54,227 nt of DNA from a virus (taxonomy: Duplodnaviria; Caudoviricetes), in the IMG/VR virus record IMGVR_UViG_3300032249_000551, positions 1 through 54,227 of that record; one strand, given 5' to 3'. This document shows, piece by piece, positions 7,472-21,285 of the stretch. The notes under the pieces are model-generated. The model was not told the DNA's origin, ran no database searches, and saw nothing but the letters and a program-made list of their open reading frames with translations. Within the stretch, counting starts at the first letter, position 1; the number at the start of each line of letters is the position of its first letter. The position numbers were made by a program, and so were the translations under genes.

Positions 7472-7496
7472 GTGCTAATAGTAAGGCTACTGCCTT
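7472..7496 (-). promoter_or_regulatory. Leaderless promoter: AAGGCAGTAGCC box + TACTAT -10
   Basis: Box 14 nt upstream of ATG, same geometry as at 7940-7964. Confidence 0.6.
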
Positions 7497-7519
7497 GTCG
7501 TTACTGGATAAAAAAAATA

Positions 7520-7939
7520 TTAGATACGTCCGCCATCTCGTCCATTTTTGACGTAAGACTCTTTGCTAGGGTCAAACTCAGGAAAACTTCTTTTTATAGC
7601 TTTTAGATTATCATCTTGACCAAGTACTGAGGCGACTTGACCCTTAACTTTGAAAGCTTTGCCCGCAAAGATGGTCTTATCACCATGAGCGTTCTTAGGA
7701 AACTCAGTTCCCTCAGCAGGCTCTACCTCATAGACGTTGCCGTGGTGTACTGGGTACTCGCCACCGTCGTTTGCTCCGTAACCACTAATCACTCTACTTT
7801 GGGCGTGCTTAAGTGCGTAATCTAAATCAGAGGTAGCCCAAGCCGTTCCGTGCTCAGTTCTTGATTTAATAACATCCCCTGGCTTGAGAGTCTCAATGGT
7901 CCCGTGGAAGAGGGCGCTAGAGAGGTTATTCTGACTCAT
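7520..7939 (-). CDS. Arr-like (rifampin ADP-ribosyltransferase fold) ADP-ribosyltransferase
   Basis: LFHGT...LKPGDVI, AWATSDLDYA..HA, GNVYEVEP: motif order of the Arr-type ART fold. Confidence 0.7.
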   Translation of the reverse strand: MSQNNLSSALFHGTIETLKPGDVIKSRTEHGTAWATSDLDYALKHAQSRVISGYGANDGGEYPVHHGNVYEVEPAEGTEFPKNAHGDKTIFAGKAFKVKGQVASVLGQDDNLKAIKRSFPEFDPSKESYVKNGRDGGRI

Positions 7940-7964
7940 AAGCCAATATTACGGCTACTGCCTT
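7940..7964 (-). promoter_or_regulatory. Leaderless promoter: AAGGCAGTAGCC box + TAATAT -10
   Basis: Minus strand AAGGCAGTAGCC-G-TAATAT-TGGCTT-ATG. Confidence 0.6.
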
Positions 7965-8128
7965 ACTCTGTACCCCTCAACCATGGCTGAGCCCTGGGGG
8001 TTCCCTGCGGAAAACACGCTTAACTGTGGGGGTCATTTGTGCCAAAAGATTATTATTTATTAACGATTACATTCACAACTTGTTTCTTAAAGAAGTATTT
8101 ATTGTTCTATCTCCGCATAAATAATTAA

Positions 8129-8592
8129 AATAACTATTGTTTGATAGCAACTTTGATAGCGAGATTAAATAACTATTGGCTACTGCTTATTTTTATCGCA
8201 ATCTTTGTGCGGATACCACCAGACTAAACACCAACTTTGCAAGTTGTAATCAGGTATAAACAACTAACTAAATACATTGTGTATCACTAACTATTTACTA
8301 TGTGATTACAAGTTATGTATTCAATAGTTATGTAAATACATTCATTCATCACACTAATAACTATTCTCTTATCTATCTCTTATTACTTATTCTCTTATGT
8401 ATTTATTACTACTCATTGTTCTTTTGCATAAGGGGGCTACGCCCCCTTGCACCCCCACTCATTCGCAATAGTTATTAGCACTTGCAATCTGCAAACAGAT
8501 AGTTAAAGAAACAACTAACAATAAATAACTATTAACTAATCTTCTTTTACTTGACACTTCAGTTATTCCTGCACCTTCTATTAAATAACTAT
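8129..8592. repeat. Dispersed AATAACTAT repeats in AT-rich non-coding DNA
   Basis: Direct copies at 8129, 8168, 8356, 8524, 8584; inverted ATAGTTAT at 8324 and 8468. Confidence 0.7.
8430..8448. other. GC-rich hairpin AAGGGGGC-TAC-GCCCCCTT in AT-rich DNA
   Basis: Perfect 8-bp inverted repeat followed by GCACCCCC. Confidence 0.75.
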
Positions 8593-8785
8593 CTATAACT
8601 TCTTTTGTATTTGTTTCTTATTTAATTTATCTGTTACTACTTATGTTTATTTATTCTTTTGTTATTACTGAAAATAAATACACAAAATAACTTTGCGTTT
8701 CTTCTTTTGTATCTCTTATCTATCTACGGACAGCGCACCGAATTACTCATAAAAAATTGCGTTATTTATGCGTAAGACACGCGAG

Positions 8786-8815
8786 TTGCAGACCCCTGCC
8801 CCTATCTGTTACGCT
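8786..8815 (+). promoter_or_regulatory. Sigma-A/70-type promoter of the plus-strand block
   Basis: TTGCAG (8786) - 18 bp - TACGCT (8810) with extended TGn; predicted TSS near 8822. Confidence 0.6.
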
Positions 8816-8821
8816 TGCGCC

Positions 8822-9200
8822 AGCAAGTTGCTCTCCCGAATGGGACAGGCGGTTAGCGAAATAAACAAAAGTTAGTTTTGTTTTTTTATTTTGTATGCAA
8901 CGCAATCGTGTGCGTTATTAAATAAAACAAAATAAATAAATACAAACTTCTTTTGTGCAAACTCGCTACGAAATTATTTACTGCTTGTATGTATTACATA
9001 CAACACTTCAAGTGTGCAAGTGGTAAATAAAAATAGAAACTATAAATTGAATGATGTAATAACTACGCAACTGCGACAAACTCAAATGGTTATTACTAAG
9101 TGACATTGTTTCTATCTTGCAAATTATTTAATTACATTCTGCTATTCACTAATTGTTATGAGCGATTAGTGAATAGCGGTGTGCAATTAACTTGCACTAA
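8822..9200 (+). ncRNA. Putative structured leader/ncRNA (about 380 nt, four consecutive long stems)
   Basis: Stems 8854-8968, 8974-9030, 9033-9115 and 9118-9196; the last has a 17-bp core with G-U pairs on the plus strand; no ORF. Confidence 0.6.
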
Positions 9201-9231
9201 CAACTAACAACTAATACGAATGGAGTAACAA

Positions 9232-9621
9232 ATGACAACAACAACTATCGCACCTGTAATCACTAACACAACAACACGACAGACAGATAGAAAACAAAAA
9301 CACACAATTACTTTCAACGATAAGTTTCGTGTGAATGTTACAACTATTCACGACAAAGAACGCAAGGCGTATCGCACTTATGTTTCTGTTGTTACTTTTG
9401 AGATTAGTAACAACTTTGTTATTGAGAAGTCAATCGGTTCTATCTTTGGTGGTTTGTACGCAACTGTTATTCGCACTACGCCATGCAATCGTTTCTCTCA
9501 ATCTTCTTTTGACATTGAGTGTGCAAATGCTCGCAACGATTACAACGCACTTAGCGGTCACTATGAACAACAAATAACTGCACTACTAAACGACAAGGAG
9601 TTACTAAGTGAAACTAATTAA
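9232..9621 (+). CDS. Hypothetical protein, first gene of plus-strand block
   Basis: 129 aa; GGAG RBS preceded by CAACTAA repeats. Confidence 0.8.
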   Translation: MTTTTIAPVITNTTTRQTDRKQKHTITFNDKFRVNVTTIHDKERKAYRTYVSVVTFEISNNFVIEKSIGSIFGGLYATVIRTTPCNRFSQSSFDIECANARNDYNALSGHYEQQITALLNDKELLSETN

Positions 9622-9751
9622 ACGATTACTAATTGCAATCATCTTTATCGTTGTTATTGCTTTCTTGTTTGATGTAACAACACCTGCTGAGTGCAAAAAT
9701 AAATCGGTTGAACAACTATCTCAATTCTGCATTGACCTTCTTTATCCTTAA
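9608..9751 (+). CDS. Small membrane protein (47 aa)
   Basis: GTG start with AAGGAG RBS; MKLIKRLLIAIIFIVVIAFLFDVTTPAECKNKSVEQLSQFCIDLLYP. Confidence 0.65.
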   Translation: MKLIKRLLIAIIFIVVIAFLFDVTTPAECKNKSVEQLSQFCIDLLYP

Positions 9752-9797
9752 TCACTTGCAATCTTCTTTAACAACTAATAAGAAACGGAGTAAATAA

Positions 9798-9911
9798 ATG
9801 TCAGTACCTACCGCAACAATAGATGAACAAGGCGTGACTATTTTCTTTGATGAAGATGTTACTTCTTACTTCCAACTCGTATCGTTACTGAATAAAAAGG
9901 AGAATAAATAA
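9798..9911 (+). CDS. Small hypothetical protein (37 aa)
   Basis: ACGGAG RBS and the shared start-associated motif. Confidence 0.55.
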   Translation: MSVPTATIDEQGVTIFFDEDVTSYFQLVSLLNKKENK

Positions 9912-10172
9912 ATGCGAATTAAAATCGTTAAAGATAATCACCCAAGCAACGAAGAACTAATTACTTCAATGTTAATTGCAATTCAATTCTTAAATCCTGA
10001 ACACGAAAAAGAAGATGTGTTATCGGGTGTCTTGCAATTACTAAGTGAAATCGTTGATAGAAAGAAACTTCTTTTACTTGCAGATAGCGTGTGCAATTCT
10101 GCAAGTAATAAGTTTGATGAAGTTAAATCGCTATACGAAATGTTCCAACTAGACACCGACATAAACAACTAA
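9912..10172 (+). CDS. Hypothetical protein
   Basis: 86 aa, AAGGAG RBS. Confidence 0.7.
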   Translation: MRIKIVKDNHPSNEELITSMLIAIQFLNPEHEKEDVLSGVLQLLSEIVDRKKLLLLADSVCNSASNKFDEVKSLYEMFQLDTDINN

Positions 10173-10197
10173 CAACTAACAGAAACGGAATAAATAA

Positions 10198-11556
10198 ATG
10201 ACATACGCAATTCTTATCTCAGGTCAAGTAAATACAACAGATACAAAGCAAGTAATTATCGCAAGTCATAACGGCAACACTCATACCTTCATGCGTGTAA
10301 CAAATGGTGGTCGTGGTGAAAGTAATTCATGGAGTGCAAGAGAGTTAGATGAACACAACTCAATCGGCACACTTGATTACAACTTAATTGGTGAAGTGCT
10401 ATCAACACCACTAACAAGTGTTGATGAAGTTGCACTTAACAATAACGAGATACCAAATGTTTTAATACAGAAACTTACAAAGCAGTATCGCTTACGCAAT
10501 CTAACAATAGATACAACACGCACTATCCAAAGTGTTGTTGATGAAGTGCAGGTACTAATTGAACAAGACCCTGCACTATTAAGTAAGTATCGCTCTGACG
10601 GCAGAAGCGATAAGCACGCCACAACTAAGACCGAAGGGACAAAACAAATGACACCACGCAACACAATCAACCCAATCGCTAACGAAGCAATAGTGATTAA
10701 CAAAGTAGAACGCAACGATAAAGAAGAACGCACACTTGCGTTCATACCTTCTTTAACAAGTGAAGCGGTACGCACTTATGTACCACGCACTTTCGCTGGC
10801 AACTTAACAGAAGACCAACTCTATACATACGCATTGAAGTCAAAGAAGAATGTATCTATTCAAGGTCATGCAGGTACAGGCAAGACAACTTCTTTAATGA
10901 CATTCTCTGCAAAGAATGGTTTGGAGTTTGGTTCAATGAGTTGTAATGCAGGTGTAGAGCCTTCACAATTCTTTGGTCGTTATGTTCCAAATGCAGAAGG
11001 TAAGTTGGAATGGCGTGACGGATTATTTACGCACTTCTTTCGTAATGGTGGAGTGTTAGTAATTGACGAAGCGAACTTTCTTCCACAGAAAATTGCTTCT
11101 GTATTACATGGTGTTCTTGACGACCGCCGAGTATTAACTTTGTTAGAGCATGACGGCGAAGTTATTACTGCAAATGAAAACTTACTTATCGCTATGTGCT
11201 ACAACGACGGCTACAAAGGTACTTCTAAGTTTAACGAAGCGTTCGCAGACCGCTTTTGGATTAAGTTAAACTTTGAGTACGACACCGACATTGAAAAGAA
11301 GTTTATTCCTTCTAAAACTTTGTTGGAACTTGCAACTTCAATGCGAGCAGACACAATCGCTGGCACTTATGAAACACCTGTATCAACTCGTTTGCTAAAG
11401 CAGTTTGTTGATTTAGCACAGAACCTTAGTTACGACTTTGCAGTTGATAACTTTGTTAATAACTTCCGCGAAGATGAACGCTCTAGCGTGAAACTTCTTT
11501 TGGACTCTCAACGACACAACTTGGAACTAGAACTTATCGGAAAGGTGAGTGAGTGA
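10198..11556 (+). CDS. MoxR/CbbQ/CobS-type AAA+ ATPase
   Basis: Walker A GHAGTGKT, Walker B LVIDEAN, W.DG motif, NEAFADRF, VSTR sensor 2; about 150-aa N-terminal extension. Confidence 0.9.
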   Translation: MTYAILISGQVNTTDTKQVIIASHNGNTHTFMRVTNGGRGESNSWSARELDEHNSIGTLDYNLIGEVLSTPLTSVDEVALNNNEIPNVLIQKLTKQYRLRNLTIDTTRTIQSVVDEVQVLIEQDPALLSKYRSDGRSDKHATTKTEGTKQMTPRNTINPIANEAIVINKVERNDKEERTLAFIPSLTSEAVRTYVPRTFAGNLTEDQLYTYALKSKKNVSIQGHAGTGKTTSLMTFSAKNGLEFGSMSCNAGVEPSQFFGRYVPNAEGKLEWRDGLFTHFFRNGGVLVIDEANFLPQKIASVLHGVLDDRRVLTLLEHDGEVITANENLLIAMCYNDGYKGTSKFNEAFADRFWIKLNFEYDTDIEKKFIPSKTLLELATSMRADTIAGTYETPVSTRLLKQFVDLAQNLSYDFAVDNFVNNFREDERSSVKLLLDSQRHNLELELIGKVSE

Positions 11557-13535
11557 CAATGAGTACCTTCTTTATAGAACAACAAGCAGAACAAGAAAAG
11601 AAGCAAGCACTAAAGCGCAAGCGCGTTGGTGCGTTAGCAGGTGTGTTCTCTAAAACTCTTTCGGTATTAACAACTCACAAAATTAGTGTGAATGTTGTTG
11701 ATAGAAAAGACATTGGCGCACCTGCTTATTCATCTACAAAAGAAGTTTGGTTGAATGTTGCTCACATAAAAGATGACTTCACACCAAATGCAATCGCTAG
11801 TTACAACGGACTTGCGTTCCACGAATTAGCACACTTGCGATTTACTCCACGCAACGGCTCACGACTTGTTCAGAAGATTAAAGATGAACAAGCACAGAAT
11901 GAATTGTGGGAAGCGTTCAACTGTTTAGAAGATAGTCGTATTGAGTTTCTTCTTACAGGTTGGTTGCCTTCTACAAAAGCGTGGCTTGTTGCAACTATGT
12001 GTGACTACTTGCTCTCTGATGAAGAAGCAATAAGTCGTGCGTTCCCACTTGTTTATGGTCGCAAGTATTTACCTGTTGAATTGCGACAACTAGCAAGTGA
12101 CAACTTTATTAAGCCTGAGATACAACAAGAGATAGCAAATGTTATTGACAAATACAATGCGCTATCTCTTGTCGGTAATGAGAATGTTGATGTTGCTTTC
12201 AATCTCATAAAGAAGTTTGCAGAACTACTTAGTGAGTTACCTGCACTTCCACAATCACCACAAAGCGGTGAAGGTGAAGGCACAACAATTACTATCCGTA
12301 TCAAAAGCCCACATGGTCACGAAGGCAGACCAACACAAGGCTACGAGTCAAGTTCTGTGCGCCCTGCAACTAAAGAAGAACAAGAGCGTGCTAAGAAGAA
12401 CGCACAAAAGAATGTTGTTGAAGTAATCATAGATACAACACCAAAAGAAAATACAAAAGAAGATGTGTCCGAAGGGACAAACTCTGATACACCAACACAA
12501 TCAACACCAACACAATCAACACCAAAAGATAATTCTTTTGATGATGATTTTGAGTTTGATGATTTTGATTTTGATGATGATGTTGATGATGATGTTCAAT
12601 CACCTTCTACACCAAAAGAAGGTGGCAAGGGTATCGGTAACGAAGCAGGTAAAACAGGTAGCAACAATCAAGTAACTGATTTACTTAATGACATTCTTTC
12701 TGATGTTGTTAAAGAAGTTAGTAAAGGTATCAACGACATAGCAAAGCAACTCGGTGTTGATACACAACTTGACGGCGGTAACGCTAGAACTCCTAACAAA
12801 GCAGATTACAACGAAGTGCGTATTCCCGAAGAACTATCTTTGCTTGCAAAGAAGTTTGGACTTGAACTAGAACGCTTACAAGCAGAGTATGACCCTGCTT
12901 GGTTAAATGGTGAGCGTTCAGGAAAATTAAATGCAGGTCGTTACTTACGCGGTGACGAATTAGATACTGTGTTTGATGAATGGTCAGAGGGTCGTGATGA
13001 TGTTGTAAGTATTGAAGCGGTTATTCTTTTAGACCGAAGTGGGTCAATGAGTGGTCGTAATGCTGACAACGCTTACAAATCTATGTGGGCAATCAAGAAG
13101 GCACTAGAGCGTGTAGAAGCGCGAACAACTGTTGTTACTTTTGATAGTCGTACCAATCTTCTTTATGGTGCAGATGAAAAAGCAGGTACAACAATCAGAG
13201 ATGCTGGTGCTGACGGCGGTACAAATCCAAACGACTCACTTCTTTATGCAAAGCGTGTTCTTGCAGAGAGCGACAAAGCAATCAAGGTTCTATTCATGAT
13301 TACTGACGGCGCATGGAATACAGAAGAAGGCGAGAAGGCAGTTACAGACATGAAGAACGCAGGTGTTCTTACTTGTCAGGCACTTATCTCTAACTATGCA
13401 CACACCGCAGAGGACTTAGATAACTACCGACATTCTTTTGAGTTAATGACTTCAATGCAATCTGCAAAAGACATTCTCACTCTCGGTAAGAACTTAGTGC
13501 GACTTGCAATCACACGCAATCTAGTTAATGCGTAA
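11553..13535 (+). CDS. VWA-domain protein (CobT-like partner of the AAA+ ATPase) with N-terminal HExxH domain
   Basis: FHELAH and N.LED.RIE; acidic linker; MIDAS DRSGSM, GGT, ITDG. Confidence 0.88.
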   Translation: MTMSTFFIEQQAEQEKKQALKRKRVGALAGVFSKTLSVLTTHKISVNVVDRKDIGAPAYSSTKEVWLNVAHIKDDFTPNAIASYNGLAFHELAHLRFTPRNGSRLVQKIKDEQAQNELWEAFNCLEDSRIEFLLTGWLPSTKAWLVATMCDYLLSDEEAISRAFPLVYGRKYLPVELRQLASDNFIKPEIQQEIANVIDKYNALSLVGNENVDVAFNLIKKFAELLSELPALPQSPQSGEGEGTTITIRIKSPHGHEGRPTQGYESSSVRPATKEEQERAKKNAQKNVVEVIIDTTPKENTKEDVSEGTNSDTPTQSTPTQSTPKDNSFDDDFEFDDFDFDDDVDDDVQSPSTPKEGGKGIGNEAGKTGSNNQVTDLLNDILSDVVKEVSKGINDIAKQLGVDTQLDGGNARTPNKADYNEVRIPEELSLLAKKFGLELERLQAEYDPAWLNGERSGKLNAGRYLRGDELDTVFDEWSEGRDDVVSIEAVILLDRSGSMSGRNADNAYKSMWAIKKALERVEARTTVVTFDSRTNLLYGADEKAGTTIRDAGADGGTNPNDSLLYAKRVLAESDKAIKVLFMITDGAWNTEEGEKAVTDMKNAGVLTCQALISNYAHTAEDLDNYRHSFELMTSMQSAKDILTLGKNLVRLAITRNLVNA

Positions 13536-13540
13536 TCAAA

Positions 13541-13567
13541 TGGGGGCAATCAAATCGGTTGCCCCCA
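13541..13567 (+). terminator. Intergenic stem-loop (terminator or processing/stability hairpin)
   Basis: TGGGGGCAATC-AAATC-GGTTGCCCCCA; no U-tract on the plus strand. Confidence 0.5.
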
Positions 13568-13595
13568 ATAACAAAAACGAAACGGAGTAATACAA

Positions 13596-14177
13596 ATGAA
13601 ACTATCTGAAATTAAATTAAATGGTGAGTATGCAATCGTTCCTTCATGGACATACAACAATAAATCTTCAAGAGATGTAGATACTGTACGAGAGAATGAT
13701 GTTGTTAAAGCAACTATCTATTCACTTGATAAGTATGAGTACGAGCCAAGCAATCGCAAAGACTCACCCAACTTTACAAAAGCACAACAAGGCAATCGTT
13801 CTGTTGGAATTATTGTTAAGGCAGTAGATAACAATGGCAAAGAGTATTACTGGACTTCACGACTTGCAGATGTTATTGCAGAGTGGTCTGTGCTTGAACC
13901 TAAGTGGAACTCTGCAAAGTCTAAAGAAGAAGCAGAGCGACTCTTGCGTGAAGAAGCGCAACGCAAAGAGCGTGAGTTGCGCCGACAAGTAGAAGAAGAA
14001 GTAGAACGCTCTCGCGTATCTGTTGTTGCTACTTCTAAAGACTTGTTAGGAGAACAGACAACTGTTGAAGTAACTACAAATGGTTACGGATTAGATTACA
14101 AAGCAAGTGTAAATCTTTCTCTCAAAGAGTTTGAGTTGTTAATTGAAATGGCGTTCGCTGGTAAGGAGAACTACTAA
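13596..14177 (+). CDS. Hypothetical protein with central coiled coil
   Basis: 193 aa; GAAACGGAG RBS. Confidence 0.8.
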   Translation: MKLSEIKLNGEYAIVPSWTYNNKSSRDVDTVRENDVVKATIYSLDKYEYEPSNRKDSPNFTKAQQGNRSVGIIVKAVDNNGKEYYWTSRLADVIAEWSVLEPKWNSAKSKEEAERLLREEAQRKERELRRQVEEEVERSRVSVVATSKDLLGEQTTVEVTTNGYGLDYKASVNLSLKEFELLIEMAFAGKENY

Positions 14178-14320
14178 TGCAACTGGAACTAACTAACACA
14201 GAAATCGCAGTAATACTTGAAGCGTTAGGTAAGGAGAAGGCTTACCTAAATGCTCATGGTCACAAAGAGTCTGCTCACAAAGTGAGTGACCTTCAATCAA
14301 AGATAAAGAACGGAGAATAA
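14177..14320 (+). CDS. Small hypothetical protein (47 aa)
   Basis: MQLELTNTEIAVILEALG...; TAAGGAG RBS, TAATG coupling. Confidence 0.6.
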   Translation: MQLELTNTEIAVILEALGKEKAYLNAHGHKESAHKVSDLQSKIKNGE

Positions 14321-14321
14321 A

Positions 14322-14717
14322 ATGGGACAAGAACTATTAGAACGCACAGGTTGGGTCAAGAAGCCACGAAAGTATTTTGTTGCTACCAATAGCAAGGGAT
14401 ACAGAGTGATACGCGGTAGCGCAGATAGAGATTACTTCTATTGTGTAATCGCAAAAGAACTTAATGCGTGGGGTTCTATCTATGCCTCATTCTCTGCAAC
14501 AGAACACAACGCAAAGAAGTATTGCAAGACATGGAACAACAGAGAAGCAGACCGCTATGAGGTTGTGAAGTGTGTGCAGGTAACTGCTAAAGAAGTAAGA
14601 GCAATCAAAAAAGAAATTGCTTTAGAAGTAATCAAATACAAAGAAGAACAAGAACGACTACAACAAGAGTCCGCAGGGACAAACCCATGCACAGAATACG
14701 AAAAGGAGAATAACTAA
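14322..14717 (+). CDS. Hypothetical protein
   Basis: 131 aa; ACGGAG RBS. Confidence 0.75.
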   Translation: MGQELLERTGWVKKPRKYFVATNSKGYRVIRGSADRDYFYCVIAKELNAWGSIYASFSATEHNAKKYCKTWNNREADRYEVVKCVQVTAKEVRAIKKEIALEVIKYKEEQERLQQESAGTNPCTEYEKENN

Positions 14718-15424
14718 TGGCAACACTATCTACACACCGCACAGGCGGTGCAAGAGGCGCAAATGGATACGGAGAGTATCAAGTGCGCTATGCAAGTCCT
14801 AAGCAACAAATCTTCTTAAAGACACTACTGGAAACAAAGGCACATTCTTTTGGAGATGTAGATGTCGCAACACTTAATGTGCAAGGTGCTGGAGAACTAA
14901 TCACTAAGTTACTTGCACTACCTAACAAGGCTGGAGTTGTTGTTGCACCAAGTGAGAAGCAACTTTCTTTTGCAAAGTCGCTAACTGAAAAGAAAGAAGG
15001 CGGTGTTGATACTCTCAATCACTATCTACGCAATCGCAAAGTATCTTCTTTAGAAGAACTAGACCGCAAAGATGTGTCAGAGATTATTAACGCATTGAAG
15101 TTTGCAAAAGAAGTTACACCGCCAATCAAGATTACAGAAGTTGGTGCTTACATACTTGACGGAATTGTTTATTCAATCCGACAGAACTCTGAAACAAAGC
15201 GTTGGAGTGTTTGGACTTACTCTGATGTTGCAAAGAAGTATGTACGCAACGACAAAGAGTTTGGTGTTATCTACAAGTTAGATACAACAGACCGCTTAAC
15301 ACTAGAACTTGCTATTAAGTATTCTGCACAGGTTGGTATCTGTGTGCATTGTGGCAAGACCTTAACAGTATTGAAATCTGTTGCTGGTGGTATCGGACCA
15401 ATTTGTTCTAAAAGATACAACTAA
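14717..15424 (+). CDS. DUF6011-like Zn-finger protein
   Basis: C-terminal CVHCGKTLT...S...GIGPIC; two (A/P)S(P/E)KQ helical repeats. Confidence 0.7.
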   Translation: MATLSTHRTGGARGANGYGEYQVRYASPKQQIFLKTLLETKAHSFGDVDVATLNVQGAGELITKLLALPNKAGVVVAPSEKQLSFAKSLTEKKEGGVDTLNHYLRNRKVSSLEELDRKDVSEIINALKFAKEVTPPIKITEVGAYILDGIVYSIRQNSETKRWSVWTYSDVAKKYVRNDKEFGVIYKLDTTDRLTLELAIKYSAQVGICVHCGKTLTVLKSVAGGIGPICSKRYN

Positions 15425-15438
15425 GGAAGGAGTAACAA

Positions 15439-15750
15439 ATGTTAATAAGTGAGTTAAAAGAACTTATAGCAAATTACAAAGATAGTGACTCTGTTGTTGT
15501 TGCGCTATGGGATAAAGAATGTTTCAAGGCGTTAAATACAGAAGCACGAATAGTTACTGACAGAGAGTGGAACTATGTTGCCGAAAACTTTAGCGTGCAA
15601 ATGCACGACCAAATGTTAGGCGCAAGTATTCGCGGAGTGTTAGAAAACAAAATGCAATCAACTGATGAAGCAACAGAAGTGTTTATTGCTGACTTCATGG
15701 AACAGTACCGAACAGGTACAACAGAAGAACAACTATGGGACAAGGAGTAA
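15439..15750 (+). CDS. Hypothetical acidic protein (probable paralog of next gene)
   Basis: AAGGAG RBS; ends EQLWDKE. Confidence 0.75.
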   Translation: MLISELKELIANYKDSDSVVVALWDKECFKALNTEARIVTDREWNYVAENFSVQMHDQMLGASIRGVLENKMQSTDEATEVFIADFMEQYRTGTTEEQLWDKE

Positions 15751-15753
15751 CAA

Positions 15754-16080
15754 ATGAGAACAGTTAAAGAAGTTATAGATTATTTATCCACACTTAATCA
15801 AGACGATAAAATCTGGGCAATCTGGGTTGATAAAGAAGAACTAGCACAGATAATTACAGATACAGAGTACGAAGATGAAAACGGAAATCTACTTGAAGTC
15901 ACACCAAAAGAAATTAGTAATGACTTTCTTGAAGATGTAATGCAAAGCGTAGATAACGCGGAGTATGTGTGGGACAGGTTTTCAGATGAAGTAAGAGATG
16001 AAACAAGGAATAAGTGGGAAAAACTACATGAAAAAATAACCGAAGCAAAAGAAGATACAGACCTATGGGATAAGGAGTAA
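15754..16080 (+). CDS. Hypothetical acidic protein (probable paralog of previous gene)
   Basis: AAGGAG RBS; ends TDLWDKE. Confidence 0.75.
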   Translation: MRTVKEVIDYLSTLNQDDKIWAIWVDKEELAQIITDTEYEDENGNLLEVTPKEISNDFLEDVMQSVDNAEYVWDRFSDEVRDETRNKWEKLHEKITEAKEDTDLWDKE

Positions 16081-16084
16081 GTAA

Positions 16085-16513
16085 ATGACAACACTAGAGG
16101 TACAACAAGAAACGAAAGTAAGTGTAAGTGGCAATCTATCGTTCTATTGTTATGTGACACTAAAAGATAGTGAGCAGATAATCATAGACATTCCCGAAAA
16201 AGAATGGACAGGTGGAACTTACAAATCTACTGGTGTGATAAAGAAGGTTAGGTTAGAACAAATCTGTTACCAATCGGGATACGGAGATAATCCGCAAGTT
16301 TATCTTTACTCAATAGAGTTTCGTGGGTTTAGAAAAGACAAAGGGTTGCGGTACAGAACAGAACGACTACATAGCCCTGACCAAGAAGTGATAGACCAAA
16401 TACCTGATGAGTACCACACTTACGCGAGAGTCGCGTTTGTAAAGAAGGTAGCAGAACTACAAGAAGAACTAACGACTATGACTAATGGGGGAATACAAAT
16501 TGGAAAAAAATAA
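16085..16513 (+). CDS. Hypothetical protein
   Basis: 142 aa; TAAGGAG RBS. Confidence 0.75.
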   Translation: MTTLEVQQETKVSVSGNLSFYCYVTLKDSEQIIIDIPEKEWTGGTYKSTGVIKKVRLEQICYQSGYGDNPQVYLYSIEFRGFRKDKGLRYRTERLHSPDQEVIDQIPDEYHTYARVAFVKKVAELQEELTTMTNGGIQIGKK

Positions 16514-16535
16514 CACAACCGAAGGGACAAAAAGT

Positions 16536-17156
16536 ATGCGACTTACTAAGGGAATGAAACAACACAAAGAACAAATCTTGGTGGGTACAAGAGTACCTAA
16601 ATCAGATTTAACTTTACCAAAAGAAGTTTCAGACATTCTTATTGGACTACCACTAACAGAACGCAAAGCGTATGCAAGCGAGTTGCGTAAGGTTGGTTGG
16701 ACACTTCAATCTTTAGCGACACCGCTAAACCTAACGAGAGAGTCCATTCGTCTTTATACACTTGTGGAACACACAGGAGAAGTGTTAGCAAAGATTAGAC
16801 ACTTACCTATTGTTCAACCGCCTGTTATAGAAGTCTTTGTTGAAAGAGTGAAGCGTGTAAAGCCTGACCCAAAGGTGATAGCGCAACTAAAAGAACTTCA
16901 ACCTAAAGCGTTTATGGTTAGAGGTAAAGGCAAATCCAATCGTGAAGAAGCAGAACTTTATACACGACTTATCTATGAACTAATGGAGAGTGGTGTATCG
17001 GGTTATCGCATAGCAAAAGAACTTGGTGTTACCCATAGTGCGCTGGCGTTTCGTTTAGTGCGTTACGGATACACAACAAGCAACGGAACTTCTCGTTCAT
17101 ACAGACAACTAACACACCGAAAGACAGGAGAGGGAAATGCCGAACTGGTGCAGTAA
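16536..17156 (+). CDS. Double helix-turn-helix DNA-binding protein
   Basis: GWTLQSLATPLNLTRESIR and GVSGYRIAKELGVTHSAL; start reassigned to MRLTKG just after the 13-mer motif. Confidence 0.75.
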   Translation: MRLTKGMKQHKEQILVGTRVPKSDLTLPKEVSDILIGLPLTERKAYASELRKVGWTLQSLATPLNLTRESIRLYTLVEHTGEVLAKIRHLPIVQPPVIEVFVERVKRVKPDPKVIAQLKELQPKAFMVRGKGKSNREEAELYTRLIYELMESGVSGYRIAKELGVTHSALAFRLVRYGYTTSNGTSRSYRQLTHRKTGEGNAELVQ

Positions 17157-17775
17157 CGAATTAAAGATACAAGGTAGTCCTAAAGAACTTTCTAAACTTA
17201 TTAAGAAGGTTCAGATTACTAAAAGTGAAGCAACAGAAAATCATTGTGAGTCTGTGTTCTCTTGTCACAGAGTCATTCCAAGACCACTTGATAAAGAAGA
17301 TGAGTGGTACGAATGGAATGTTGCTAACTGGGGAAGTAAGTGGGACTTAAATGATGTTCGCTTTGACGGAGATGTAGATGATAAAGAAGTTTCTTATTAC
17401 TTTGAGAGTGCTTGGTCGCCTGTTGTACCTGTGATTGAAGCACTAGCAAAAGAGTTTAAGAAACTTTCTTTTACTTATACTTTCTATGAAACTGGTAGTG
17501 ATTACTGGGGCGAATTAGAGTATAAGAAAGGAGAACTGATAAGTGAAGATAGTGGTGATGTAAGTAGCGCAAGTTGCGAACGACTTGAATACTTAATGGG
17601 TAGTCACCACTACTGCGAAGATTGCTACGACCAAATAGAGTGCTACGGAGATAACACCGCAAAACTCTGTGAAGATTGTTTAGCAAAAGAAGATGAAGAA
17701 GATGTTTCTTTATGGGAAGGAGAAACAAGTGACTATCAAGCAAATAAATCTTTTGCAGATGTATCAAGTATCTAA
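17137..17775 (+). CDS. DUF1281/YubB ferredoxin-like domain protein
   Basis: MPNWC.N, WYEWNVANWGSKWD, FESAWSP motifs plus C-terminal CxxC..CxxC. Confidence 0.75.
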   Translation: MPNWCSNELKIQGSPKELSKLIKKVQITKSEATENHCESVFSCHRVIPRPLDKEDEWYEWNVANWGSKWDLNDVRFDGDVDDKEVSYYFESAWSPVVPVIEALAKEFKKLSFTYTFYETGSDYWGELEYKKGELISEDSGDVSSASCERLEYLMGSHHYCEDCYDQIECYGDNTAKLCEDCLAKEDEEDVSLWEGETSDYQANKSFADVSSI

Positions 17776-17968
17776 AGGTATTTATCAAACAAAAGATGAT
17801 TTGTTTCAGATAAAGAAGATAGACAACAAATGGAGTTGGTTCATACGAAGTGGCTCTGCTTGGGTAGCAAAAGACAAAAGACAATACAAAACAAAGTCGT
17901 GGTGCGAAAGGTGCATTGAAGTTGAAAGCGGTTTTGTTTATGATGATGAAACACTATGGGAAGGGTAA
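17729..17968 (+). CDS. Hypothetical protein
   Basis: GTG start after AAGGAG; ends DETLWEG. Confidence 0.6.
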   Translation: MTIKQINLLQMYQVSKGIYQTKDDLFQIKKIDNKWSWFIRSGSAWVAKDKRQYKTKSWCERCIEVESGFVYDDETLWEG

Positions 17969-17975
17969 AAGAAGA

Positions 17976-18164
17976 ATGGCAATTAAGTCGTACAAAGTAG
18001 AACTAACTACCGCGATTGCAGTAACACTAAACAATGACGAACACACCGCTAACAACTTGTGGGAAGTTATTGTAGGTAAAGCAAAAACTCAAATGATAGA
18101 CCAAGACATGAACGACAAGAACTATGTGTTGAAGGTTGTATCCGAAGTTACAGAAAGGGAATAA
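17976..18164 (+). CDS. Hypothetical protein
   Basis: Start reassigned to MAIKSYK. Confidence 0.55.
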   Translation: MAIKSYKVELTTAIAVTLNNDEHTANNLWEVIVGKAKTQMIDQDMNDKNYVLKVVSEVTERE

Positions 18165-18167
18165 AAA

Positions 18168-18341
18168 ATGATTTGCGATTATTGTTTGTCAAAAGAAACA
18201 GAGTTAATCTTCTGTAACTTATGCGAAACACACCAAGATAAAATGTCTAGCCTACTTGTTGTTTGCGCAAATCATAAAGAACTAGGACTAGCAAAAATAA
18301 AAAGGGAAGGAAGAAAAAATGGGAAAGTTATTCATTCGTAA
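18168..18341 (+). CDS. Small Cys-rich Zn-binding protein (57 aa)
   Basis: MICDYC...FCNLC...VCANH; AAGGGA RBS. Confidence 0.55.
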   Translation: MICDYCLSKETELIFCNLCETHQDKMSSLLVVCANHKELGLAKIKREGRKNGKVIHS

Positions 18342-18474
18342 GATTACAGAAGCAGATGAACTATGGTTCTGCGATAACTGTAATCAACAAGGTGTCCGAG
18401 CAAATGGCAAAGACATTGTGAGTGCTAAAGAAGTTGTGATGTGGGTCTGTTACAACTGTGTTGGCAAGGTATGA
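18319..18474 (+). CDS. Small Zn-finger protein (51 aa)
   Basis: WFCDNC...WVCYNC; GGAAGGA RBS. Confidence 0.55.
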   Translation: MGKLFIRKITEADELWFCDNCNQQGVRANGKDIVSAKEVVMWVCYNCVGKV

Positions 18475-18662
18475 AGTGCCAAGAGAAAACTGCTTACCCA
18501 ACTAAATACAAAGCAGAAAAAGCCATGAGTTTGATTTGGAAAAATCATTGGCTAAATAACAATAGAAAGAAACCTTGCGCTACTTACAAATGCGAAATCT
18601 GCGGTAAGTGGCACTTAACAAGCCAAGCCCGAAGGGACAAAACAAATAGCCCAAAGAACTAA
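18471..18662 (+). CDS. Small phage Zn-binding protein (YxCxxCGxWHLTS type)
   Basis: MKC.EK.AY...YKCEICGKWHLTS; ATGA coupling. Confidence 0.7.
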   Translation: MKCQEKTAYPTKYKAEKAMSLIWKNHWLNNNRKKPCATYKCEICGKWHLTSQARRDKTNSPKN

Positions 18663-19230
18663 GACCTGTATTGGTTGTTACAAGGCACTACCACTAACAA
18701 GGTTCAACAAGTATCCGCAAGGCTCATACGGCAGACGAGCAAGGTGTAAGTCGTGCCAAGCAATCCACCGCAAAGGTTCTGCCGATAGAACGGCAAAGCG
18801 TTTAGCGTTGGAGTCACAAGGTAAAAGACAATGTAGCAAGTGCGGAAAGAAGAAAGCCTTATCTTCTTTTCAACTTGCTACCCGCAAAGGCAGAACAAAA
18901 AGCAGAGAAGGTGTCTGCAAATCTTGTGTAAGTGAAAGACAAAAGAACAATCACTTGACTAAAAATCAAGAGATAAGGTTGTTCATCTACAACTACAAAA
19001 GAACTCACCCTTGCCAAGTGTGTGGTGAAACTGATGTAGAGATGTTGGAGTTTGACCACATTCACTCAAAGAAGTTTGACATTAGCAACGGAGTATCTAA
19101 AGGTGTGAGTATGCACTTGCTAAAGAAGGAACTTGCTAAGTGTGTTGTGTTATGTTCCAATCACCACCGCAAGAAAACGCACGCTGAACGCAACACTTGG
19201 TTGCACAGGCTTGCAAAAGAAGAAGCATAA
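18646..19230 (+). CDS. HNH endonuclease with two N-terminal Zn-knuckle repeats; no canonical start for the full-length frame
   Basis: Frame open from 18619; KTCIGC...CKSC and RQCSKC...CKSC, then CQVCG...LEFDH...KCVVLCSNHH; candidate ATA start at 18646. Confidence 0.7.
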   Translation: MAQRTKTCIGCYKALPLTRFNKYPQGSYGRRARCKSCQAIHRKGSADRTAKRLALESQGKRQCSKCGKKKALSSFQLATRKGRTKSREGVCKSCVSERQKNNHLTKNQEIRLFIYNYKRTHPCQVCGETDVEMLEFDHIHSKKFDISNGVSKGVSMHLLKKELAKCVVLCSNHHRKKTHAERNTWLHRLAKEEA

Positions 19231-19242
19231 AGAAACTACATT

Positions 19243-19288
19243 AAAGGGGATAGGTTGCCAACTGGCAATCTATCCCCTTTTTTGTTTT
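19243..19288 (+). terminator. Rho-independent terminator
   Basis: GGGGATAGGTTGCCA/TGGCAATCTATCCCC stem followed by T-tract. Confidence 0.85.
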
Positions 19289-19321
19289 GCCTTCTAAGTT
19301 ACTCGCTGGTAGGTTGTCCTT
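19287..19321 (+). promoter_or_regulatory. Leaderless sigma-A-type promoter of the recombinase
   Basis: TTGCCT - 17 bp - TAGGTT - 6 nt - ATG. Confidence 0.7.
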
Positions 19322-20674
19322 ATGGCTTACGCAATCAAACGCAAAGGGCGATTTACCGCCTATTACCGCCAAGACGGAAAAGTCAAATCCGTAGGCACAT
19401 TCTCATCTAGGGCTAAAGCAATTAACGCTGGATTACTCGCCGAAGAAGGCGAGTTTAATCTAATGCCCGAAAACCAAAAGACATTCAACACTTATTTAGA
19501 GCAATTAGCACTCTCACACGACATCAGAGTAATCACCCGTAAGAATTACATTACCCTGCTAAAGAAGTATGCCCAACCTTCTTTAGGGTCTAAGCGCATC
19601 TCCGCTATCACCAAGAAAGACATAAAGACCCTGTTTGATAATCTCGCAAATCAAGGGATTAGCCCAAGCACAATCTCACACCTAAAGACTTCTTTAGGTT
19701 CTCTATTCAGGCTCGCCGTTGATGATGACGCAATAGCCACAAACCCAACCCACCGCATAAGACTAAGCACGCCCAAGCCAGACCCCACATACACCCTAGA
19801 GCCTAAAGACTTTCAGGCTATCTTAAAGAACTTACCCACAGACGGAAGCCGTCTTTTAGCCCAGTTTCTTGTTGTTAGCGGCTGCCGATACGGAGAAGCC
19901 ACAGAACTTAGAGTCAAGGACTTTAACTTTGAGTCAAAGGAAGTCTATGTCAGACGCACAGTTTCAGATGTAGGCTACGCCTACCAGCCCGCAGGGACAA
20001 AGTCCGAGGGGACAAGATTTCTCATTGTGCCAGCTACCAAGAACGGCAATAAAAGAACTGTTGTTCTGAGCTCAGCTCTAGTATCAGAGATAAAGAAGTT
20101 TGTAAAGGCAAAAGCCTTAGCAAAAGAAGACCTAGTCTTCTCAAAGCACCTGGTTGAGAAGAAGAGTAAAATAGAAAGCCCTATCACAAGCGTAGGGAAG
20201 CCTTACACCATTGGAAGCAGGAGATTCCAACACGCAACGGCGTATTCATACAATGTCGGCGGTTGTAGGTGTGAAGCATGTAAAGAAGCGGTCAGGGAGT
20301 ACCGCAATCACTATAGAAAGGACAAGGGAAAGGGCAAGGTAGAAAGCCTTAGCAAAAGCACTAGCAAAAGCCTTAGCAAAAGCGAAAGCCCTAGCAAAAG
20401 CCTTAGCAAAAGCCTTAGCGAAAGACACCTACCTCGTGACAAGTGGCGAGCCATTTGGAACGAAGCCATCAACAAGTCAGGGATTGGTTGGTACCCCACT
20501 ACTCACGACCTTCGGCACGCTAACGCTACCCAGTTGTTAAAGAACGGGGTAGATGTGCATGAGGTCAAAGAGCGGTTAGGTCACCAGTCAATCGTAACTA
20601 CGGAGAGATACCTGCATCGTATCCGTCACCAGCAGTCAAACGCAGCCGAGGTTGTGAATGACTATTTGGAGTGA
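19322..20674 (+). CDS. Tyrosine recombinase/integrase with inserted Cys-rich module and SLSK repeats
   Basis: Catalytic R (GCRYGE), K (ATKNG), HxxR (HDLRH), H (LGHQ), Y (TERYLH). Confidence 0.92.
   Translation: MAYAIKRKGRFTAYYRQDGKVKSVGTFSSRAKAINAGLLAEEGEFNLMPENQKTFNTYLEQLALSHDIRVITRKNYITLLKKYAQPSLGSKRISAITKKDIKTLFDNLANQGISPSTISHLKTSLGSLFRLAVDDDAIATNPTHRIRLSTPKPDPTYTLEPKDFQAILKNLPTDGSRLLAQFLVVSGCRYGEATELRVKDFNFESKEVYVRRTVSDVGYAYQPAGTKSEGTRFLIVPATKNGNKRTVVLSSALVSEIKKFVKAKALAKEDLVFSKHLVEKKSKIESPITSVGKPYTIGSRRFQHATAYSYNVGGCRCEACKEAVREYRNHYRKDKGKGKVESLSKSTSKSLSKSESPSKSLSKSLSERHLPRDKWRAIWNEAINKSGIGWYPTTHDLRHANATQLLKNGVDVHEVKERLGHQSIVTTERYLHRIRHQQSNAAEVVNDYLE
20343..20424 (+). repeat. Tandem 12-bp repeat (AAAGCCTTAGCA)n, about 6-7 imperfect units
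   Basis: Read directly; related copies at 20108-20126 and 21219-21238. Confidence 0.85.
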
Positions 20675-21207: not shown

Positions 21208-21252
21208 TCGTAGCCAAAGCAAAAGCCATAGCAAAAGCAGGTGCATAATAGG

Positions 21253-21285
21253 AAGCCCCCTCAGAAATGAGGGGGTTTTCTTTTT
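21253..21285 (+). terminator. Rho-independent terminator
   Basis: GCCCCCTCA-GAAA-TGAGGGGGT + T-tract. Confidence 0.85.

Follow-up and report, generated by a model that had tools for sequence, protein, structure and literature searches.

Gene content and layout of the locus

The window, that is, the whole 54,227-nt stretch of viral DNA that was analysed, contains a region with a rightward early operon comprising a MoxR/VWA pair, small acidic proteins, an HTH-like protein and an HNH-like ORF. The following features were recorded:

7735..20031 (12,297 nt), no strand: zone without ACGT, AGCT and GGCC, from tetranucleotide counts
7940..9231, no strand: AT-rich non-coding spacer separating divergent gene blocks
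7953..8260, no strand: conserved non-coding element at the left edge of the zone, 70-91% nucleotide identity in 11 relatives
9141..9177, + strand: 13-bp perfect inverted repeat with an 11-nt loop (arms 9141-9153/9165-9177), from sequence reading and fold
10198..11556, + strand: MoxR-type AAA+ ATPase (AAA_5, E 1.1e-18)
10631..10643, + strand: site 1, CCGAAGGGACAAA, within the MoxR ORF linker; predicted break 10634/10635
11553..13535, + strand: VWA-domain protein with an acidic low-complexity linker, from a domain match
12469..12481, + strand: site 2, within the VWA ORF linker; predicted break 12472/12473
14671..14683, + strand: site 3, CCGCAGGGACAAA, 46 nt 5' of the gene starting at 14717
14717..15424, + strand: protein with a C-terminal DUF6011 domain (phrog_636), from profile matches
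15439..16080, + strand: two small acidic proteins, 15439-15750 (pI 4.4) and 15754-16080 (pI 4.2)
16485..17156, + strand: basic protein with sub-threshold HTH matches, likely start ATG 16536
16519..16531, + strand: site 4, just 5' of ATG 16536 of the HTH-like gene
18628..19230, + strand: Cys-rich HNH-like ORF, with no ATG, GTG or TTG before 18808
18629..18641, + strand: site 5, at the place of the Shine-Dalgarno sequence of the HNH gene in relative L012
19243..19280, + strand: strong intrinsic-terminator-like hairpin, 17 pairs and a T run
19322..20674, + strand: Xer/IntI-like tyrosine recombinase, from Xer/IntI-type matches, with the full catalytic set
19989..20016, + strand: sites 6 and 7 (19989, 20004), in tandem with a 15-nt period, in the recombinase ORF at PAGTK-SEGTR
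20343..20424, + strand: 12-bp tandem array, coding for a Ser/Lys linker of the recombinase, SLSKSTSKSLSKSESPSKSLSKSLSE

The MoxR (AAA_5)/VWA pair named in a first-pass annotation of this DNA was confirmed by domain matches, and its small acidic proteins were found as described (pI 4.2-4.7). For its double-HTH protein, all HTH matches were sub-threshold. No family matches were found for the two small acidic proteins in 15439..16080, which are put forward, by inference only, as candidate anti-restriction DNA mimics. A DpdA-like gene (24234-25742; phrog_887, E 2.4e-57) adjoins the block, and genes for a primase and a DnaB-like helicase are also present in the phage genome. A freshwater actinobacterium is the probable host, and the virion is probably of the myovirus type.

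The AT-rich repeat spacer proved real, with a GC content of 0.33 in 7940-9231 vs ~0.43. Five forward copies of AATAACTAT (8129, 8168, 8356, 8524 and 8584) and one reverse copy (8468) lie within 8129-8592, and the window holds no other. Homology with relatives starts at ~7937-7953. The conserved element carries an invariant GGCTACTGCCT at 7953, repeated as GGCTACTGC at 8178, together with CCCTCAACC, TAACTGTGGGGG, ACTTGTTTC and two copies of TTGATAGC. The leader at 8850-9231 folded with a z of -6.9, and 0/100 shuffles folded as well. Its fold is driven by long inverted repeats, mainly the one at 9141..9177, ~55 nt 5' of the first gene on the + strand; the alignment of the leader to the close relative L015 is restricted to ~9125-9217. 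Of the promoter with a 380-nt structured leader that had been proposed, the structure thus stood. A convincing promoter was not found, as a scan gave 17 promoter-like sites vs 29.7 in shuffles.

A zone free of restriction sites

ACGT, AGCT and GGCC were absent from 7735-20031, where 43, 43 and 18 were expected, and ATAT was present once vs 100 expected; these expectations were already corrected for composition. Outside the zone, the density of ACGT, AGCT and GGCC was ~8 sites per kb. Among hexamer palindromes, 57/64 were absent in 9232-21207. TGCA and TTAA showed no depletion in the window. The block has a strong purine skew. The zone is purged of short palindromic restriction targets, and the remaining genome tolerates them. 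Depletion was therefore strongly confirmed, with edges sharper than first annotated: the final ACGT is at 7734 and the earliest AGCT at 20032. The right edge lies 17 nt past the last 13-mer copy, at about residue 237 of the recombinase. In run X1, depth was 7.8-10.2 inside the zone and thus not above the 11.4 outside, so the zone is no long terminal repeat of the T5 kind.

An oriented array of 13-mers

CCGNRGGGACAAA is present in seven copies, all on the + strand, between 10631 and 20016. The exact CCGNRGGGACAA occurs in the window seven times on the + strand and never on the - strand, a count that 0/100 shuffles reached; the strand-specific 13-mer of the first-pass annotation was thereby verified. 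The first six copies are spaced by 1838, 2202, 1848, 2110 and 1360 nt, and sites 6 and 7 are 15 nt apart. The motif, CCGN^RGGGACAAA, is on the sense (non-template) strand in every case and lacks an inverted-repeat architecture. Most copies lie within ORFs and not at gene starts. Conservation of the motif is at the nucleotide level: all seven copies use GGG, a codon that accounts for just 5% of Gly codons.

The recombinase gene was found at the same position in every relative and always contains a motif copy in the relatives compared. Its peptide changes to carry the motif, appearing as SEGTRF, SEVQRF, SEGKRF or SDLRRF. L011 and L012 lack the 15 nt of site 6, which are inserted in frame. Relatives numbered 250 in IMG/VR vs only three weak partial matches in 185,579 species genomes, among which no prophage copies were found; the recombinase is thus probably not for lysogeny. 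The tandem 13-mer and the 12-bp array both exist as annotated. Both are inside the recombinase ORF, and the array is ~310 nt outside the depleted zone and differs in length among relatives. This coding, length-variable linker is not the stop or switch, and it is the tandem 13-mer that marks the edge.

Contig ends at the motif

In several independent assemblies, contigs have their first base precisely at position 5 of the motif (CCGN^). In the sequencing runs, such starts were at 16523 (X20), 18633 (X1) and 20008 (X1 and X2). Among the 86 left contig ends examined, four were base-5 starts (L021, L033, L035 and L116), with L021 and L033 starting at site 2 and L035 at site 3. By our own arithmetic, fewer than 0.05 exact starts were expected by chance. 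They were seen with different assemblers, samples and motif versions. Neighbouring contigs ended between 4 nt before and 15 nt after the predicted break, at 10630 (X2), 18631 (X1), 12482 (X2), 20013 and 20021 in the runs and, among the 76 right ends examined, in L015, L048, L090 and L043. L061 starts 8 nt past the predicted break of site 4. Most motif copies were bridged by contigs, and X1 record 1 covers sites 1-4.

The contig ends point to a DNA-strand break at the motif. Its 5' end is fixed and its 3' side variable, and the fixed starts at CCGN^ with variable neighbouring ends are consistent with a nick in one specific strand, like those of T5, phiKMV-like phages and tf. This reading is based on assembled contig ends, not reads. 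The first-pass annotation had a leader RNA or antitermination factor act at the 13-mers. This was not supported, as the leader contains no complement of the motif, a small hairpin is not kept across lineages and the contig ends suggest a broken DNA strand.

Conservation in uncultured relatives

The zone, the motif array and both edges were found again in many uncultured relatives. The shared boundaries and the co-occurrence of the signals were borne out by this comparison, and the block is no recent horizontal insert. Zones of 11.7-13.5 kb were present in the lineages of L057, L058, L053, L032 and L031. In G009, a complete 98-kb relative, the zone is the sole stretch of its kind. The right edge lies 14-280 nt past the recombinase-internal motif copy in L070, L057, L060, L065, L053, L032 and L099. 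Avoided tetranucleotides were ACGT, GTAC, TGCA and TTAA in L099, ACGT, GGCC and TGCA in L120, and ACGT, AGCT and CCGG in L075. Such lineage-dependent sets are what host-specific restriction pressure would produce.

The motif has lineage-specific versions at orthologous positions (GGGACAAA, GCTGACAAA, GGAAAAAA, GTGCAAAA, CGCAACAAAAA, TCCGACCTGCGAA and TTCGGGATAGAAA), which vary in the few bases directly after the break. For the type-G motif, reverse copies were absent at 25/25 loci with at least two copies (17 contigs). The copies in G009 track gene orientation and use both genome strands, with 10/10 on the sense strand, five inside the zone and five outside.

Comparison with known phages

Localised nicks have precedents in T5, phiKMV-like phages and tf. 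T5 and BF23 carry site-specific nicks in one strand only, and they are restricted only when sites fall in the first-step-transfer region. Their pre-early segment of ~10 kb must be free of restriction sites, whereas the remainder tolerates them, and a conserved non-coding region is located at a boundary (PMC10644984, 10.1101/866236). The locus resembles them in these respects, its nicks being predicted from contig ends. It differs from T5 and BF23 in that no homology at the sequence level was detected, the zone ORFs scanned included no homologue of A1, A2 or Dmp, and the zone is not a long terminal repeat, judging by X1 depth. The distal edge is in a recombinase gene at a nick motif, whereas that of T5 is non-coding and rich in repeats and DnaA boxes. 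The presumed freshwater actinobacterial host and myovirus virion set it apart from T5 as well, as does the T5 nick consensus R/GCGCRGG, which is unlike the 13-mer (cited in PMC3517423).

Phage tf has one-strand nick consensus sites at positions similar to those in its relatives but with a changed consensus. In tf/LUZ24-like and phiKMV-like phages, a 9-19-nt consensus is confined to one strand, and co-evolution of nickase and site has been proposed for the kept positions with differing consensus. Clustering is uneven in tf too, with 11/14 copies in one genome half (PMC3517423). Those phages differ in being podoviruses of 40-46 kb with biochemically mapped nicks and no reported restriction-free zone, whereas the nicks here are deduced from contig ends and the copies in G009 track gene orientation on both strands. 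In T7-like Autographiviridae, whether restriction motifs are present in or absent from the leading region likewise decides sensitivity to restriction, even with motifs elsewhere in the genome (PMC12455610). However, those are Type I motifs without a nick array, and the leading region is set by a known genome end and transcription-driven entry.

The earlier claim that nothing comparable exists in actinophages needs qualifying, since oriented 13-mers are known there. The start-associated sequences of cluster K are asymmetric multi-copy 13-mers, oriented with transcription and lineage-specific. The same holds for the stoperators of cluster A mycobacteriophages, which are bound by a two-domain repressor (PMC9283540). 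These elements work by way of a repressor in lysogens or at the start of translation and involve no DNA breaks; here, prophages were not found and most copies are within ORFs.

Alternative explanations

It is unlikely that the zone is simply the part outside a genome-wide protection for a reason other than entry order. Protection could be a base modification, for example by the DpdA-like enzyme, or a co-injected protein. This protection might work poorly on nicked DNA, and the zone itself would therefore have to avoid restriction sites. The adjoining DpdA-like gene and the coincidence of the zone with a cluster of nick motifs agree with this, and no genome end would be required at the left edge, in line with contigs running on there without a break. 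However, the tetranucleotides avoided in the zone alone include ATAT (window) and TTAA (L099), which have no G, so guanine modification cannot protect those sites elsewhere. The edge is also sharp to within tens of bases of a motif copy, and we know of no mechanism that spares a defined 12 kb. A transcription-level code is rather unlikely. The 13-mers would be oriented sites for a phage DNA-binding protein that blocks or modulates elongation, as at stoperators, which are asymmetric and oriented (PMC9283540), or start-associated or antitermination sites, with the zone as an unrelated feature of the early operon. The constant sense-strand placement, also in G009, would fit, as would the HTH-like gene in the block as a candidate binder, the lineage-specific versions, which suggest co-evolution with a protein, and the copies just 5' of start codons (sites 1, 4 and 5; 39661, 57641 and 97317 in G009). 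Yet this leaves the exact base-5 starts of DNA-assembly contigs unexplained. Most copies are away from gene starts, sites 6 and 7 lie within an ORF past a strong terminator, the hairpin is not conserved across lineages, and the zone edge interrupts a gene and does not coincide with the end of a transcription unit. With no prophage copies found, a lysogenic state that would need silencing is missing.

That the motifs are target sites of the recombinase, with the breaks as cleavage intermediates or products and the array serving site-specific recombination such as resolution, excision or inversion of the segment, is distinctly unlikely. The complete set of catalytic residues, the Xer/IntI-type matches, the constant position of the gene with its internal motif copy, and lineage-variable bases right after the break, reminiscent of an overlap region, are in its favour. 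The site has no inverted-repeat architecture, however, and recombination between its copies, which are direct repeats, would remove essential early genes. Overall recombinase identity does not follow motif type, being 86% both to L010 (same type) and to L012 (different type), and this reading does not by itself explain the zone. Little credence is given to the fixed 5' ends being starts of discontinuous DNA synthesis, left unsealed where priming is preferred, rather than endonuclease nicks. Bacterial Okazaki fragments match the ~2 kb motif spacing in length, primase and helicase are phage-encoded, and the fixed 5' end with a variable 3' side would be expected; but the copies are mostly in one 12-kb block and always follow gene orientation, not fork direction, and to our knowledge primase sites are far shorter than a 13-base recognition sequence. 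An artefact, in which composition and assembly behaviour alone create the zone and the contig ends, is very unlikely and the least credible of these readings. The purine skew and the short, broken Logan contigs could suggest it, but composition-corrected expectation is still 43 vs 0 observed, palindromes such as TGCA and TTAA escape depletion in the window, the same edges are kept in other lineages, and exact base-5 starts recur across assemblers, samples and motif versions. The copies have at most 19 nt in common, below the word length of assemblers.

A possible leading segment with a proposed nick in the non-template strand

We give about an even chance to the ~12-kb region, which forms a single domain at the DNA level, being the leading, first-exposed genome segment, as in T5 first-step transfer, nicked on the non-template strand and analogous, not homologous, to T5. 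A zone with sharp edges and no restriction sites is the expected look of a first-entering segment in T5-type phages (PMC10644984, 10.1101/866236, PMC12455610). Several observations count against it. At the left edge, 12/12 contigs continue without a break, none of the 86 left ends examined starts there, and near-complete relatives assemble as circles with arbitrary starts. The motif occurs without the zone in the lineages L111, L105 and L110, and the zone without an identified motif in L120 and L129. Half of the G009 copies are outside the zone, X1 depth gives no T5-like long terminal repeat, and the scanned zone ORFs yielded no A1, A2 or Dmp homologue. The right edge is in coding sequence, whereas the stop region of T5 is non-coding and repeat-rich, and the support for nicks from contig ends is indirect. 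The observations of the first-pass annotation were partly confirmed and mostly hold, and its interpretation is partly supported: of staged entry or antitermination, the former fits the sharp-edged site-free zone, and the leader-RNA and antitermination part is not supported.

Under the leading-segment reading, the 13-mer would be the recognition site of a candidate nicking activity specified by the phage, with a fixed 5' end left behind CCGN. Transcription of the incoming DNA would not be blocked by nicks in the non-template strand. The specificity of the nicking enzyme and its sites may have changed together between lineages. The segment would enter, or be exposed, before the protection of the phage from restriction is in place, and the distal motif copy would mark where this exposure ends.

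Genome organisation and relatives

The window comprised 54,227 bases without end repeats, with a CheckV completeness estimate of 54%. Genes on the - strand (1-7939 and 22035-54191) flanked a + strand block at 9232-21912, and the divergent blocks were set apart by a 1.3-kb non-coding gap. The - strand genes encoded DNA polymerase I, helicases, a primase, a UvsX-like recombinase, a class II ribonucleotide reductase, a DpdA-like transglycosylase, an endolysin and baseplate proteins. No tRNA genes were found by ARAGORN. The features discussed below are:

7735-20031, stretch free of ACGT, AGCT and GGCC (the zone)
8850-9231, folded leader
10198-11556, MoxR ATPase gene
11553-13535, VWA protein gene
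10631, 12469, 14671, 16519, 18629, 19989 and 20004, +, starts of motif sites 1 to 7
18628-19230, +, HNH-like open reading frame (ORF)
19322-20674, +, tyrosine recombinase gene
24234-25742, -, DpdA-like transglycosylase gene (phrog_887, E 2.4e-57), adjoining the class II ribonucleotide reductase gene

The transglycosylase gene suggests possible incorporation of 7-deazaguanine into the phage DNA. The window region had no DNA match among 50,697 phage records searched with megablast. By protein, the nearest named phages infect actinobacteria: the MoxR ATPase matched Gordonia Chidieberevirus at 42% and the DNA polymerase matched Streptomyces phage BRock at 37%. Gordonia phage ChisanaKitsune showed the same layout, with a 1.16-kb divergent gap, three small genes and a pair of AAA-ATPase and CobT-like genes. 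Close relatives, collected through protein searches, were uncultured contigs, many with a freshwater label, and the + block was syntenic across the IMG/VR and JGI contigs. The label 'actinophage' of the first-pass annotation is therefore plausible, with actinobacteria as putative hosts.

The AT-rich repeat spacer described in that annotation was confirmed. The gap had a GC content of 0.33 and carried AATAACTAT five times forward and once reverse, and this repeat was absent from the rest of the window. The proposed promoter with a 380-nt structured leader was borne out in part. A strong fold was present at 8850-9231 (z -6.9 against shuffles), mainly due to perfect inverted repeats, but no promoter could be placed. 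A consensus promoter scan returned fewer sites than shuffles, none accounting for a 380-nt leader. Leader conservation in a close relative was confined to the last ~100 nt.

A zone cleared of restriction sites

Restriction-site depletion was the strongest of the five signals from which a first-entry module had been proposed. Between 7735 and 20031, ACGT, AGCT and GGCC were absent (expected 43, 43 and 18) and ATAT occurred once (expected 100); the flanks held ~8 such sites per kb. From 9232-21207, 57 of the 64 hexamer palindromes were missing. The zone recurred in several lineages with a length of 11.7-13.5 kb, and in the complete 98-kb relative G009 it was the only stretch of that kind. The cleared set varied among the related contigs: L099 had no ACGT, GTAC, TGCA or TTAA in its zone (expected 37, 37, 37 and 82) and normal numbers outside, L120 lacked ACGT, GGCC and TGCA, and L075 lacked ACGT, AGCT and CCGG. 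Some more distant lineages and ChisanaKitsune had no zone. The zone is very likely a selected feature, and the lineage-specific cleared sets, as site counts, fit host restriction systems selecting on one exposed segment. A modified guanine cannot be the shield of the genome outside the zone, since the sites avoided solely inside it include TTAA and ATAT.

Other tetranucleotides were nearly missing from the whole 54 kb (CCGG 0, TCGA 0, GATC 1), and CGCG was strongly depleted outside the zone. Genome-wide avoidance varied among relatives: L031 contained TCGA and lacked AGCT, and L017 was rich in GATC and TCGA. TTGCAA was the sole hexamer palindrome thriving in the zone, with 16 copies at 8237-19211, often as ACTTGCAA or GTGCAA..TTGCAC. 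Relatives were enriched in akin words such as TTACTTGC and ACACTTGC. TTGCAA may act as a promoter or operator element.

At the left edge, the zone and a non-coding element (7953 to ~8250) began together. Across 11 relatives with different leftward genes, this element showed 70-91% identity. The right edge, at 20032, followed the last motif copy by 17 nt and a strong terminator by 750 nt, which places it near residue 237 of the recombinase. In relatives it was likewise inside the recombinase gene, soon after a motif copy. These positions therefore define the domain at the DNA level and not by genes or transcription units. The left edge was abrupt in the window, as were both edges in G009. Beyond the right edge of the zone in the window, ACGT, AGCT and GGCC together occurred at 2-3 per kb for ~4 kb (20032-24000) and then at 6-11 per kb. 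The left-edge element held a 9-nt partial motif copy, CCGCAGGGA, at 8008-8018 (-), which alone is no more than expected by chance.

An oriented 13-mer motif

A strand-specific 13-mer had also been reported, and this observation held. The exact sequence CCGNRGGGACAA occurred seven times between 10631 and ~20015, always on the + strand. No copy was found elsewhere in the window or on its other strand, the count exceeded that of each of 100 shuffles, and 25 loci with the motif version of the window (type G) had no reverse copy. G009 carried five copies in the + block on the + strand and five elsewhere on the - strand, which is the gene strand there; antisense-strand copies of the motif were not found. 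Other lineages carried their own versions at the same positions.

Motif versions and the contigs carrying them
CCG[AC][AG]GGGACAAA: window, L009, L010 and 14 further contigs
CCG[TC]GCTGACAAA: L033, L015
C[CA][GA]AAGGAAAAAA: L012, L013
CCGNNGTGCAAAA: L011, L014, L023
CCGCAACAAAAA: L031, L049 and others
TCCGACCTGCGAA: L088
TTCGGGATAGAAA: L099

In distant lineages the motif escaped crude k-mer enrichment; a mismatch-tolerant search recovered it for L088 and L099 and returned none for L120, L129 or L017.

The motif was kept while its flanks diverged and gained indels. Of the Gly codons in the block only 5% are GGG, but 7/7 motif copies used this codon. At the site inside the recombinase gene, the peptide tracked the motif (SEGTRF, SEVQRF, SEGKRF, SDLRRF). 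A role as a peptide [STP][EA]GT[KN], for instance a protease site, was rejected, since the rare GGG was used throughout and the peptide varied by lineage. Judged from codon use and alignments, motif conservation acts on nucleotides. A small hairpin, CC-GNR-GG, was rejected as the signal because it was not kept in other lineages. No support was found for the suggested action of leader RNA or an antiterminator at the 13-mers. The 2-4-bp stem of the window version was gone in those of L014, L049 and L088. A conserved RNA stem-loop of the nut or put type was not found, and Rfam searches of 7000-22000 gave four matches, every one under its gathering score.

Two other repeated words were observed. 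The 8-mer AAGAAGTT was very frequent in the whole window (23 forward, 15 reverse), and all relatives examined had akin 11-mers such as GCTAAAGAAGT at 10-15 copies per 11 kb. In the homologous + block of ChisanaKitsune (11995-28650), CCGGGTG was present 23 times forward and once reverse, often within intergenic gaps as CTCCGGGTG with a hairpin after it. This distant relative may thereby have an oriented signal analogous to the motif.

Contig ends at the motif

Evidence for strand breaks came from the ends of assembled contigs. Public Logan contigs placed on the window started at 16523, 18633 and 20008 (twice), in each case base 5 of a motif copy, and neighbouring Logan contigs ended at 10630, 18631, 12482, 20013 and 20021. 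Each motif site of the window had at least one coincident contig end, the tandem pair being counted as one place. Among JGI and IMG/VR contigs, 4/86 left ends fell exactly at base 5 of the motif of their own lineage (L021, L033, L035, L116). These four spanned three motif versions and included 54-kb and 48-kb contigs. One further left end (L061) lay 8 nt past base 5, and 4/76 right ends stopped 4-15 nt beyond the predicted break (L015, L048, L090, L043). Our own arithmetic puts the number of exact starts due to chance at <0.05.

Repeats were rejected as the cause: no more than 19 nt are common to the motif copies, and breaks due to a repeat would fall elsewhere than at base 5. Considering library construction, a nick on the + strand followed by end-repair would produce a fixed 5' end and a variable opposite end. 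Most motif copies were nevertheless spanned by contigs, so either the breaks would be incomplete or the intact strand would usually bridge them. On this evidence, strand breaks at the motif are likely. No break was seen at the left edge of the zone, where 12/12 contigs ran across and none of the contig starts examined fell.

The recombinase and other proteins of the zone

The tandem 13-mer and the 12-bp repeat array noted at the end of the module were both present, but both lay inside the recombinase ORF. The array codes for a Ser/Lys-rich linker whose length differs among relatives, which argues against its proposed function as a stop. The recombinase matched Phage_integrase (E 2.2e-25); matches to the XerA, XerD and IntI models were below their cut-offs. 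Its catalytic set was invariant (R189, TKNGNKR hairpin, H395-R398, H421, Y430), and the enzyme is predicted to be catalytically complete and Xer/IntI-like. In IMG/VR, 250 relatives were found. In 185,579 species genomes no close relative was found, and only three weak partial matches were returned. The enzyme probably has a role other than lysogeny. It is tied to the motif by position alone.

The HNH gene was rejected as specificity determinant for want of support: the L010 protein was 55% identical with the same motif versus 85% for L012 with a different motif. L033, with another motif version at sites 2-4, was collinear with the window at ~86% nucleotide identity, with no replaced gene in 12.5-19.7 kb. 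In type-G lineages the HNH-like ORF had no ATG, GTG or TTG before 18808. At the corresponding position, L012 showed a Shine-Dalgarno sequence and ATG; the window and its relatives had the motif there, and ATA or ATC after it. An upstream ORF at 18441-18662 overlaps in another frame and also contains CxxC motifs. The HNH-like ORF may use a non-canonical start or a frameshift.

The HTH-like protein had no significant match among PDB sequences and the small zone proteins had no NCBIfam match. In the window (12489-12596) and in relatives, the VWA linker contained variable microsatellites: CACAAT-type repeats coding QSQS, which differed in length (13 copies in L021), and acidic GAT/GAG runs. Many contigs of other organisms piled up on this linker.

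Comparison with known systems and interpretation

The one-strand consensus, clustering, kept positions and consensus changes in relatives resemble the localized nicks of T5/BF23, phiKMV-like phages and tf (PMC3517423); in the relatives of the window, too, positions were kept and the consensus differed. In T5/BF23, the first-step-transfer region is the only place where restriction sites bring sensitivity (PMC10644984, 10.1101/866236). Sites are tolerated there outside and not inside the segment, a pattern seen here at the level of sequence only. The leading region of T7-like phages (PMC12455610) is also among the closest known systems.

Other comparisons separated the window from known systems. 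In T5, the first-step region occupies one fixed end of the genome and forms part of a long terminal repeat. Such a repeat was rejected for the zone, since depth in sequencing run X1 was not doubled there; a short terminal repeat is possible. No homologues of A1, A2 or dmp were found in Pfam, PHROGs and NCBIfam searches of zone ORFs, with some of the small ORFs covered by part of these libraries. Cluster A stoperators are sites of temperate phages, bound in the prophage by the immunity repressor; here no repressor was identified, and the recombinase had no close relative in the species genomes. Start-associated sequences of cluster K sit bases before start codons, whereas only 3/7 motif copies (sites 1, 4 and 5) lay within 10 nt of a possible one.

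Because localized nicks, T5/BF23 first-step transfer and the T7-like leading region are the closest systems, the block is read as a leading, first-exposed segment free of restriction targets and nicked on the non-template strand, with the last nick site as its far end. Nicks on this strand would not stop RNA polymerase, and the last site would mark the far end of the leading segment. This reading supports the analogy with two-step T5 injection drawn in the first-pass annotation. We consider the composite reading evenly balanced between true and false, because the left edge is unbroken, there is no long terminal repeat, no T5 pre-early homologue was found, HNH identity does not follow motif type and the recombinase is tied to the motif by position alone.

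A more elaborate version, a self-contained first-step module, is unlikely. It would belong to a large, uncultured clade whose hosts are probably freshwater actinobacteria. A phage enzyme would write nicks on the non-template strand at CCGN^NNNN-ACAAA (^, break); this might be the conserved Xer-like recombinase, working as a site-specific nicking-closing enzyme. Just past the cut, a few bases would form a specificity code, and from one lineage to another all sites would switch it together. The tandem last site, inside the enzyme's own gene, would serve as injection stop. Only the restriction-proof 12 kb would be exposed at first; the MoxR/VWA pair and the acidic proteins would then disarm the host and so free the remaining genome.

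A search of the available literature returned no description of the zone or motif of this clade, and nothing relevant on zone-restricted palindrome avoidance or on nicks in actinobacteriophages. The kind of system is already known from T5. New are the unrelated lineage, the edge within a gene at a nick site, the lack of a long terminal repeat and the concerted switches beside the cut. To our knowledge, two-step entry with a restriction-proof leading segment is essentially confined to T5-like coliphages, and we are aware of no explanation, after sixty years, for the purpose of site-specific nicks. On the leading-segment reading, an abundant environmental clade unrelated to T5 would join both features, a nick array limited to the protected segment and a nick site exactly at its far edge. 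The combination would link the two puzzles and offer many natural variants for testing nick function. As to method, the contig ends of public assemblies can expose where DNA strands of uncultured viruses are broken. As lineages vary in motif version and avoided set, they would form a natural record of restriction systems shaping phage genomes.
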